Positions 82-3,000 of a DNA stretch of 5,550 bases are shown one piece after another; position 1 is the first letter of the stretch; every line of letters starts with the position of its first letter. The position numbers and the translations under genes were made by a program. The DNA is from a virus (lineage: Duplodnaviria; Heunggongvirae; Uroviricota; Caudoviricetes). The notes below the pieces were generated by a model that saw only the letters and a program-made list of their open reading frames with translations, made no database searches and was not told where the DNA came from. The DNA lies in the IMG/VR virus record IMGVR_UViG_2534682095_000012. One strand, given 5' to 3'.

Positions 82-3000
82 TCAGCTGATACTGATACCT
101 GCTGTGGATTTCTTCATCACCACAACCAGCAGATCGCTGATACTGGTTGTTGGTGTCCAGTTATTCGCTCCTGATGAAGATACGGTGAATGTCAGTGTCA
201 GTGTCCCCTGTCCGGCAGGCATATCTATAACTGAGGAAAATACGCCCTGAGCATCCGTCGTGGACTGATTAAAAATCTCCTGACCATTGCGGGTCACTCT
301 TAACCGGCAGGTTGAATACCAGTATGACTGTTGGTTATTACTGTTGAAATTCTCATGCTTACCACCGCGGAATAACACTGGCGGTATCATGACCTGCCGG
401 TCAAATTTCTGATCATCACTGATTCTTACCGTGATGGTGCCACTGGCATAACTGTTCGTGCGGGGGAAAGACTTGCTGACCGTTTTGACAATATCGCCTT
501 CAATCTGATTGGCTGACAGTTTCCCCTTAATCTGACAGTTTTCATTAATCGTGACATTGTTGAGCGTCCCTGAATTTGCATTCACATTACCGCTGATATC
601 CGCATTTTTAGCGGTCAGCTTTCCGTCTGGTGTCAGGGAAAATGCCGGCGGATTTCCACCGCTGGTAATGGTGGGAGCCGTCAGGCGTTTCAGGAACACG
701 TCGTTCATGAATATCTGGTTGCCCTGCGCCACAAACATCGGCGTTTCATTCCCGTTTGCCGGGTCAATAAACGCGATACGGTTAGCGGCAACCAGAAACT
801 GGCTCAGCTTGCCTTCCTCCGTGTCCTCCATGCTGAGGCCAATACCCGCGACATAATGTTTGCCGTCTTTGGTCTGCTCAATTTTGACAGCCCACATGGC
901 ATTCCACTTATCGTTGGCGTCCTTCCACTCTTTCGAAAACTCATCCAGTCTGCTGGCGTTATCCTCCGTCAGCTCGACTTTTTCCAGCAGCTCTTTACCG
1001 AGATGGGATTCGGTTATCTTGCCTTTGAAAAAATCCAGGTAACCTTCCGCATCATCGCTCGCCCGACCGACGGCCTCCACGAATGCCGATTTGCCAACGG
1101 TGTTCACACTGCGAACGTAAAAATAATAATCATGGCCCGGCTTAATATTGATACTGGCGGCTATCCAGTACAGCCCCGTGCCAAGGTAGCGGGCTGTGGT
1201 TTCAACCTGCCTGATATCGGTAATCCGCGTTTCCGAGAACCAGAACTCAAACTGTACCGTCGGATCGTAAACCGCAAGATGCGGCGTGGCGGTTATCTGA
1301 AAATAGCCCGGCGTCAGCTCAATCCGCGACGGCGCTGCCGGTGCGGCAATCCGGAACGATACCGACGCCGGATCGCCCTGCTGTCCCCACGCATTTACCG
1401 CCCGGACTGTCAGCGTGTACCGTCCCAGCGCCAGTTGCGTGAAGCGGTATGTGGTTTCCGTCGTCCGGGCCGTGCTGACCAGCCGCTCACTGCCGTCGTC
1501 CGCTGTTACGGTCAGGCGAAGCAGGAAGCTCACCCCCTTCACCACCTTCGGTGTGTCCCAGCGCGCCAGCACCTGATATTCCCCGCTGTCTGCGGTGACT
1601 TCTGCGGTCAGGTGCTGCACCGCTGGCGGCGTGACACCATTTACCGTGCCGCTCTGGTCGCCGTCAAAGTGCGCCCCGTTATCCACGATGGCCTCTTTTT
1701 CCGGTACATGCTGCACGGCGGTGATGGCATACGTGCCGTCGTCGTTCTCACGGATACTCACGCAGCGGAACAGGCGCTGGCGCAACGTCGGCAGCTTCAG
1801 CCCCCAACGCTGTATCGCAACGCCGTCAGGAACACGGCTCACTTTACCTTCACGCCGTCGGTGACGGACTGACCTCCACGCTGACCGGATCCCTCCGTCA
1901 ACCAGGCTTATCAGCGTGGTCCGGAGATGGCAGCGTGATTTCACGGTCGAGCGTCAGCGTCCGGGTCTGGCTGTTCACCGCCAGCACGCGCCCCGGTGCT
2001 GATACCGGCATAGTCATCATCGCAGATTTCAATGACATCGCCCGGTACATGGCGAAGCCCTTCGCACCCACGCTGAAGTCCACGGTCTGCGTCTCCAGCA
2101 GTTCCGTTTTAATCAGCCACAGCCCGGCGCGGTGTGCCTGCCCCCGGCTGGTACAGCCAAAGGCATCCATCTTCGTGACGTTACGACCGTAACGGGCAAT
2201 GGCCTGCGTTCTTCACAAGCTCTGTCGCCGTCTCCCAGCCGTTTCGGGTCAATCCAGTTCACCTCAACGCATTATGGCGGTCTTCAGGGCGCTGAAGCTG
2301 TAGCGGAACGGCGCCCATCATCCGGCATCACCACATTACTGCGGTTATAGGTCCACACCTTATCGAGGTCGGTCCTGCACGAACGTCAGGTCTGCCCGTT
2401 CCATACCGGCATACAGCGCATCGCCGAGCAGAAATCCTGAGACATCCCACGCCTTCGCTGTGTGGTCAGAGCATTACAGGTGATGCGCGGCTCCGTGCCC
2501 CAAACCTCGGACCACTGGTCGCATCTGGCCGATGACATACAGCGCCATTTTCACATCGCGCACCAGACGTTCCCCATGCCGTAGCGCGGATGGGTCAGCA
2601 TATCCCACAGACACCAGGCCATGTTGTTGCTGTATGCTGGCTTAAACGTTCCGTCCCAGATACCGCTGTATTGCCGCGTCTGCGGGTTATAGTTCGACGG
2701 CACCTGCAGAATGCGCCCGCGAAGATGATAATTACGGCTCACCTGCTGGCTGCCGAACTGCTCCGAGTCCACCTGCACGCCGACCAGTGCCGTGTTCGGG
2801 TAGCACTGTTTCACATCGATGATTTCGGTGTATGACGACCAGAGCGTTTTGTTCTGCAGCTGGTCTGTGGTGCTGTCCGGCGTCATCCTGCGCATCCGGA
2901 TATTAAACGGGCGCGGCGGCAGGTTATCCACCACCACCGAGGCCAGATACTGCGAGGTGGTTTTGCCCTTAATGGTGATGTCTTTTTCCGTCACCCAGCC

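Follow-up and report, generated by a model that had tools for sequence, protein, structure and literature searches.

Phage lambda carries its tail tip gene J, which encodes gpJ (TipJ), in the gene order L-K-I-J-lom, and distal tail modules of this type are found in lambdoid prophages of Escherichia coli. Prophage genes do decay, and in real decay substitutions and indels are mixed, fall at random with respect to codon position and are stable among clonal isolates. Another described system concerns not the genes but their assembly. A Celera-type consensus made from two haplotypes can give a sequence that is found in no read (Levy et al. 2007, PMC1964779), and excess alleles can come from collapsed repeats (PMC1964779).

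In this study, we analyzed a stretch of 5,550 bp, in the following called the window, for which it had been predicted from the letters alone that a dense cluster of frameshifts interrupts the middle of an otherwise intact J gene. From comparison with natural J alleles and with a sister colony, we consider this cluster very probably a consensus artefact of the deposited draft that arose from collapsed J paralogues.

The window is the whole contig AQAJ01000076.1 of assembly GCA_000358245.2, as identified by an exact match of the frameshift-specific 294-aa ORF, and its organism is Escherichia coli P0304777.13. An exact 76-mer, by contrast, had no match in the GTDB representative genomes, IMG/VR or the JGI metagenomes. 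The P0304777 isolates are ETEC and derive from a patient in Bangladesh who had cholera-like diarrhoea in 2011; they were sequenced at GSCID, Maryland (PMC4309559). In the matching project, several colonies per patient were sequenced with Illumina HiSeq2000 paired-end reads at an average coverage of >200x and assembled with Celera Assembler (PMC4462620). The text of this publication gives 'subject P030477', not the strain name P0304777.13; the subject is counted among those with closely related isolates and is neither of the two non-clonal ones (PMC4462620). From the strain name and the sequencing centre, we infer that P0304777.13 was part of this project. No literature was found on the contig or strain accessions. 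A contig index gave AQAJ01000076.1 in 3 samples, which may be versions of one assembly, and the frameshift-specific proteins on one contig only.

All genes of the window are located on the minus strand and form the distal tail module of a lambdoid prophage. The contig stops within the minor tail gene L, of which the 3′ part is present (5201..5550), followed by the tail gene K for a C40 peptidase/JAB protein of 247 aa with an intact frame (4453..5196), and by the tail assembly gene I, also intact (3914..4489), whose 191-aa product is widespread as an identical protein. Gene J has 3,354 nt as deposited (82..3435). At the other end, the contig runs only 15 nt into lom (ATGCGTAAACTTTAT; 1..15), which was assigned from the sequence and from where the lom CDS lies with respect to the match. 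A contig of 5.5 kb that starts inside L, stops in lom and is bounded by repeated sequence has the look of a prophage-shared repeat in a draft assembly. In more than 3,000 complete E. coli genomes, at least 80% of the window is matched at one place, and the best of these matches is 96.1% identical, with the annotation L, C40 peptidase, tail assembly protein, hypothetical protein, gpJ and Lom.

Genes I and J are separated by an AT-rich insert (3436-3913) encoding an intact 112-aa ORF (3502..3840), whose product has a lipoprotein-type signal (MNKTILFCTIIALTGC...; ...LTGC). No Pfam match is on record for this protein. It is found at the same site in many E. coli prophages, where it is annotated as hypothetical, and is possibly a moron gene.

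For the analysis of the frame breaks, the window was globally aligned to the intact J genes of strains B1.H1.1, CB9615 and UTI89, the UTI89 type being the nearest allele. Natural variation was taken from a panel of 138 distinct gap-free J alleles of the affected zone, collected from IMG/VR and complete genomes, and ambiguity of gap placement was allowed for. For the comparison of the two colonies, a three-way alignment was made with the intact J gene of GCA_000407685.1 (allele A), which agrees with the window at almost every site that the zone has retained. Other J copies were searched with positions 1750-2650 as query against 5,426 complete E. coli genomes, 4,550 of which contained J places (about 15,100 in total); the median was 3 J places per E. 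coli genome.

The arrangement of reading frames was as originally predicted. J begins with a clean frame of 294 codons (3435..2551), whose stop at 2551-2553 follows ...YGMG NVWCAM, and closes with a clean frame from 1805 to 82. Between them, gpJ peptides hop between frames: TEPRITCNA lies in an ORF at 2386-2538, the 90-aa ORF starting with MDAFGC occupies 1898-2170, and the LISLVDG...KVSRVPDGV region is out of frame at the start of ORF 82-1944. Three J ORFs are thereby called (294, 90 and 586 aa) instead of one continuous ORF of about 1,130-1,160 codons, and J fragments have been deposited in GenBank as proteins ENE59929.1 and ENE59928.1.

In all three alignments, every frame-breaking difference in J fell within 1806-2569. 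This deletion zone corresponds to J nt ~865-1674 (aa ~289-558) and covers the Phage-tail_3 domain. It is flanked by the intact N-terminal part with the FNIII-A_GpJ domain (2570..3435) and by the intact C-terminal part with Ig_J, Ig_J_second, Phage_Tail_Tip and Ig_GpJ_C (82..1805), both delimited by ORFs, alignment and Pfam. The zone holds 41 frame-breaking events in 764 bp, compared with none in the remaining ~4.8 kb, and alignment to intact genes revealed no frameshifts in the rest of J, K, I and L. Outside the zone, paired 2-nt indels were compensating alignment renderings of substitution clusters, and one 1-nt difference is intergenic.

When indels were tabulated against substitutions, as the original prediction had suggested, 41 deletions stood against 0 insertions and only 2 substitutions relative to the UTI89-type allele; 37 events removed 1 nt each and 4 removed 2 nt, with a loss of 45 nt in total. 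The prediction that the lesions are nearly all single-base deletions and that the substitutions expected of natural decay are missing was thus borne out, and with this spectrum an assembly artefact is a better reading than a true loss of J. A further part of the prediction, namely that the deletions often lie in short homopolymer runs, did not hold. Runs of at least 2 accounted for 37.8% of the deleted bases compared with 41.5% of the background, and runs of at least 3 for 5.4% compared with 9.3%, so that no homopolymer bias was found.

The positions of the deletions turned out to be far from random. Panel-polymorphic columns coincided with 37 of the 41 events, while 14.8 ± 3.1 were obtained under the null model (maximum 29) and none of 20,000 permutations reached 37. 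A placement on codon position 3 was possible for 40 of the 41 (null 21.7 ± 3.2; maximum 33 in 20,000 permutations), and 22 of the 23 unambiguously placed events lie on this position (binomial p = 5e-10). The 2-nt losses sit where two adjacent columns vary, e.g., at J nt 983-984 and 1578-1579. The deletions mark the synonymous sites where natural J alleles differ. The codon position 3 register and the overlap with polymorphic sites, together with the lack of homopolymer bias, exclude random errors and homopolymer under-calls as the source of the losses.

The number of lost bases also has a natural counterpart: 45 bases in ~810 bp (5.5%) is the usual distance between pairs of natural J alleles in this region (about 35-50). 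Removing the positions that distinguish two panel alleles reduced the edit distance to the window from 52, as obtained with a single allele, to 30. No allele pair among the 138 panel alleles reproduced the window exactly, 30 being the best edit distance, and the reconstructed second allele had a best natural match of 97.9% among complete genomes.

The window deletions were absent from the other J copies in the complete genomes: the full-length matches listed span 945-946 bp, compared with 901 bp in the window, and the best of them are otherwise almost identical to it. The 586-aa J fragment, when looked up as an exact sequence, was recorded on AQAJ01000076.1 only.

Sister colony P0304777.7, to which the protein cluster of the 90-aa fragment pointed, carries the same prophage region on its 86-kb contig AQAQ01000013.1, and there J is again in pieces. 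About 40 deletions of the same kind were found, almost all on codon position 3, in a zone spanning J nt 882-1983 compared with 865-1674 in the window. The deletion events of the two assemblies overlapped in part, 28 being common to both, 15 window-only and 14 sister-only. The lesions were thus not reproducible across assemblies of the same clone as those of a genuine pseudogene would be, and 29 indel differences within 1.1 kb between clonal colonies are implausible.

The bases retained at these sites were informative. At the window-only deletion sites, the sister base differs from allele A at 11 directly and at 4 more after gap placement; among the 15 sister-only deletion sites, there are 9 where the window base is not that of allele A. 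Since the kept bases differ from allele A, the reads of the strain would contain two states at these sites, and each assembly would have either picked one of the states or dropped the base where the column was mixed. Both the permutation with the 138 alleles and the sister comparison thereby place the errors at between-copy differences, as is expected for an artefact of this kind. The two allelic states per site derive from the comparison of window and sister; the second J copy of the strain was not retrieved.

Besides the indels, the window (1-5550) and the sister region (6509-12058 of the examined part of AQAQ01000013.1) differ by 47 substitutions. These are concentrated in K and the C-terminal half of J, suggesting that the consensus switches between prophage copies from one segment to the next. 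The 247-aa K protein of the window was found on no other contig in an index of 153 billion gene positions. Its gene follows the CB9615-type allele in a patch at 4684-4714, and the allele of the sister colony and of many genomes in the rest. From its alleles, K probably combines two copies in a chimeric consensus that came out without a frameshift, and the 47 substitutions and the unique K protein are consistent with a chimeric consensus in general. J itself is a natural-looking mosaic. Its N-terminal two thirds belong to the 1,159-aa J type (GCA_000407685.1, UTI89), while its C-terminal receptor-binding third belongs to the 1,132-aa type (B1.H1.1, CB9615). The junction could be either a true recombination or a product of the collapsed assembly.

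Further lesions were observed in the examined region of AQAQ01000013.1. The tape-measure gene H of the sister (3285-5834) has lost ~24 net bases within nt 564-717, and its lom (12044-12642) is split into 98 + 100 aa. These lesions appear to be artefacts of this type as well, affecting further prophage genes with repeated copies in the genome.

Putting the 45 bases back restored an open J ORF of 3,399 nt and 1,132 codons. Its product shares 1108 of 1132 residues (97.9%) with an annotated E. coli prophage gpJ and matches PF24801, PF13550, PF24421, PF24489, PF09327 and PF12421, all far above the cut-off. The repaired gene thus has the full six-domain complement of gpJ, and the deposited fragments carry the same families.

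The cause that we propose for the frame breaks can be outlined as follows. Two or more lambdoid prophages would be present in the strain, with J genes ~5.5% apart in their central third. Celera Assembler would have stacked the Illumina reads of both J copies in one multiple alignment, and at columns where the copies disagree no base would have won, so that the consensus would receive a gap, seen as 1-nt deletions at wobble sites. We infer the exact assembler step as well as the second J copy, and the true J gene or genes of the strain are most likely intact. No published account was found of Celera Assembler calling a gap, and not one of the bases, at mixed columns, nor was a published description found of the base-dropping signature.

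Collapsed paralogues have to be weighed against a genuine pseudogene, in which J would truly have gained 41 small deletions and the phage could not build a tail tip. The lesions are indeed present in the deposited sequence, decay of prophage genes is a known process, and 28 events recur in the sister assembly. However, the almost pure deletion spectrum is unlike decay, real deletions have no reason to select codon position 3 and polymorphic sites, the two clonal colonies differ by 29 indel events, the J copies listed among complete genomes are free of these deletions, and the other genes on the contig are all in frame. We regard a true loss of J as extremely unlikely. The same grade is given to random error in a stretch of low quality or low coverage with homopolymer under-calls, although the restriction to deletions in a single stretch would suit it. 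It predicts neither the 3-nt periodicity nor the coincidence with polymorphic sites, homopolymers are not enriched, and 28 events recur in an independent assembly. The platform, Illumina at >200x, is not indel-prone (PMC4462620; the membership of the strain in this project being deduced as described above). The original prediction of a localised low-quality or assembly error was therefore right in preferring an artefact to the loss of J and wrong in its proposed source, i.e., low quality and homopolymers.

Closer to the preferred reading is a variant in which the copies were mixed in the same way but the last step was another one: mixed columns would have been written as ambiguity codes or Ns, which were then stripped before or at deposition. 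This would account for each loss being the mixed column itself and for 2-nt losses where two adjacent columns vary. The NCBI contig already has 5,550 bp and the fragments are annotated as proteins, so any stripping preceded deposition. Nothing points directly to stripping, and a gap call would leave the same sequence; we rate this variant as very unlikely. A biological route to the same pattern would be a real, mismatch-directed deletion of single bases at heteroduplex mismatches between recombining, diverged prophage J genes. It would account for the coincidence with inter-allele differences, but different subsets of deletions in clonal sister colonies are hard to explain in this way and nothing was found in its support, so that its probability is close to negligible. 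Two other mechanisms were considered and set aside. A diversity-generating retroelement would cause adenine-specific substitutions, while the deletions hit all four bases and no reverse transcriptase is among the genes called on the contig (L, K, I, the 112-aa ORF and the J fragments); and forty-one programmed frameshifts are beyond decoding.

With collapsed J paralogues as the preferred explanation, the locus holds no biological novelty: it represents a consensus error in a public draft genome and not a pseudogene. Caution is nevertheless required, as the spurious J fragments ENE59929.1 and ENE59928.1 stand in GenBank. Since the sister assembly shows the same J artefact and a similar cluster in the tape-measure gene, other drafts of the project may be affected, and any pseudogene counts, prophage-integrity calls or protein clusters based on affected drafts would be inflated. 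A cluster made up solely of deletions, in a 3-nt register and at sites polymorphic in the population, offers a cheap flag for such errors that needs no reads.

Compared with the described systems, the locus resembles lambda gpJ (TipJ) in the L-K-I-J-lom synteny of the window and in the FNIII-A_GpJ, Phage-tail_3, Ig_J, Ig_J_second, Phage_Tail_Tip and Ig_GpJ_C domains of the repaired ORF. It differs in that 45 bases are missing from the Phage-tail_3 region of the deposited J, which as written does not code for the protein, and in the 112-aa lipoprotein-like ORF between I and J. With pseudogenes of cryptic lambdoid prophages it shares a tail gene split into several ORFs, the pieces of which are called as separate or partial proteins, whereas the mixed spectrum, the randomness by codon position and the clonal stability are missing from its lesions. 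The 'local mosaicism' of Celera assemblies (PMC1964779) is similar in the stacking of near-identical copies, in a column-wise consensus that is found in no read, in a short contig bounded by repeats and in errors at sites where the copies differ. The documented outcome of that process, however, is a mosaic of alleles visible as substitutions, while in the window the base was lost at most mixed columns and frameshifts resulted.
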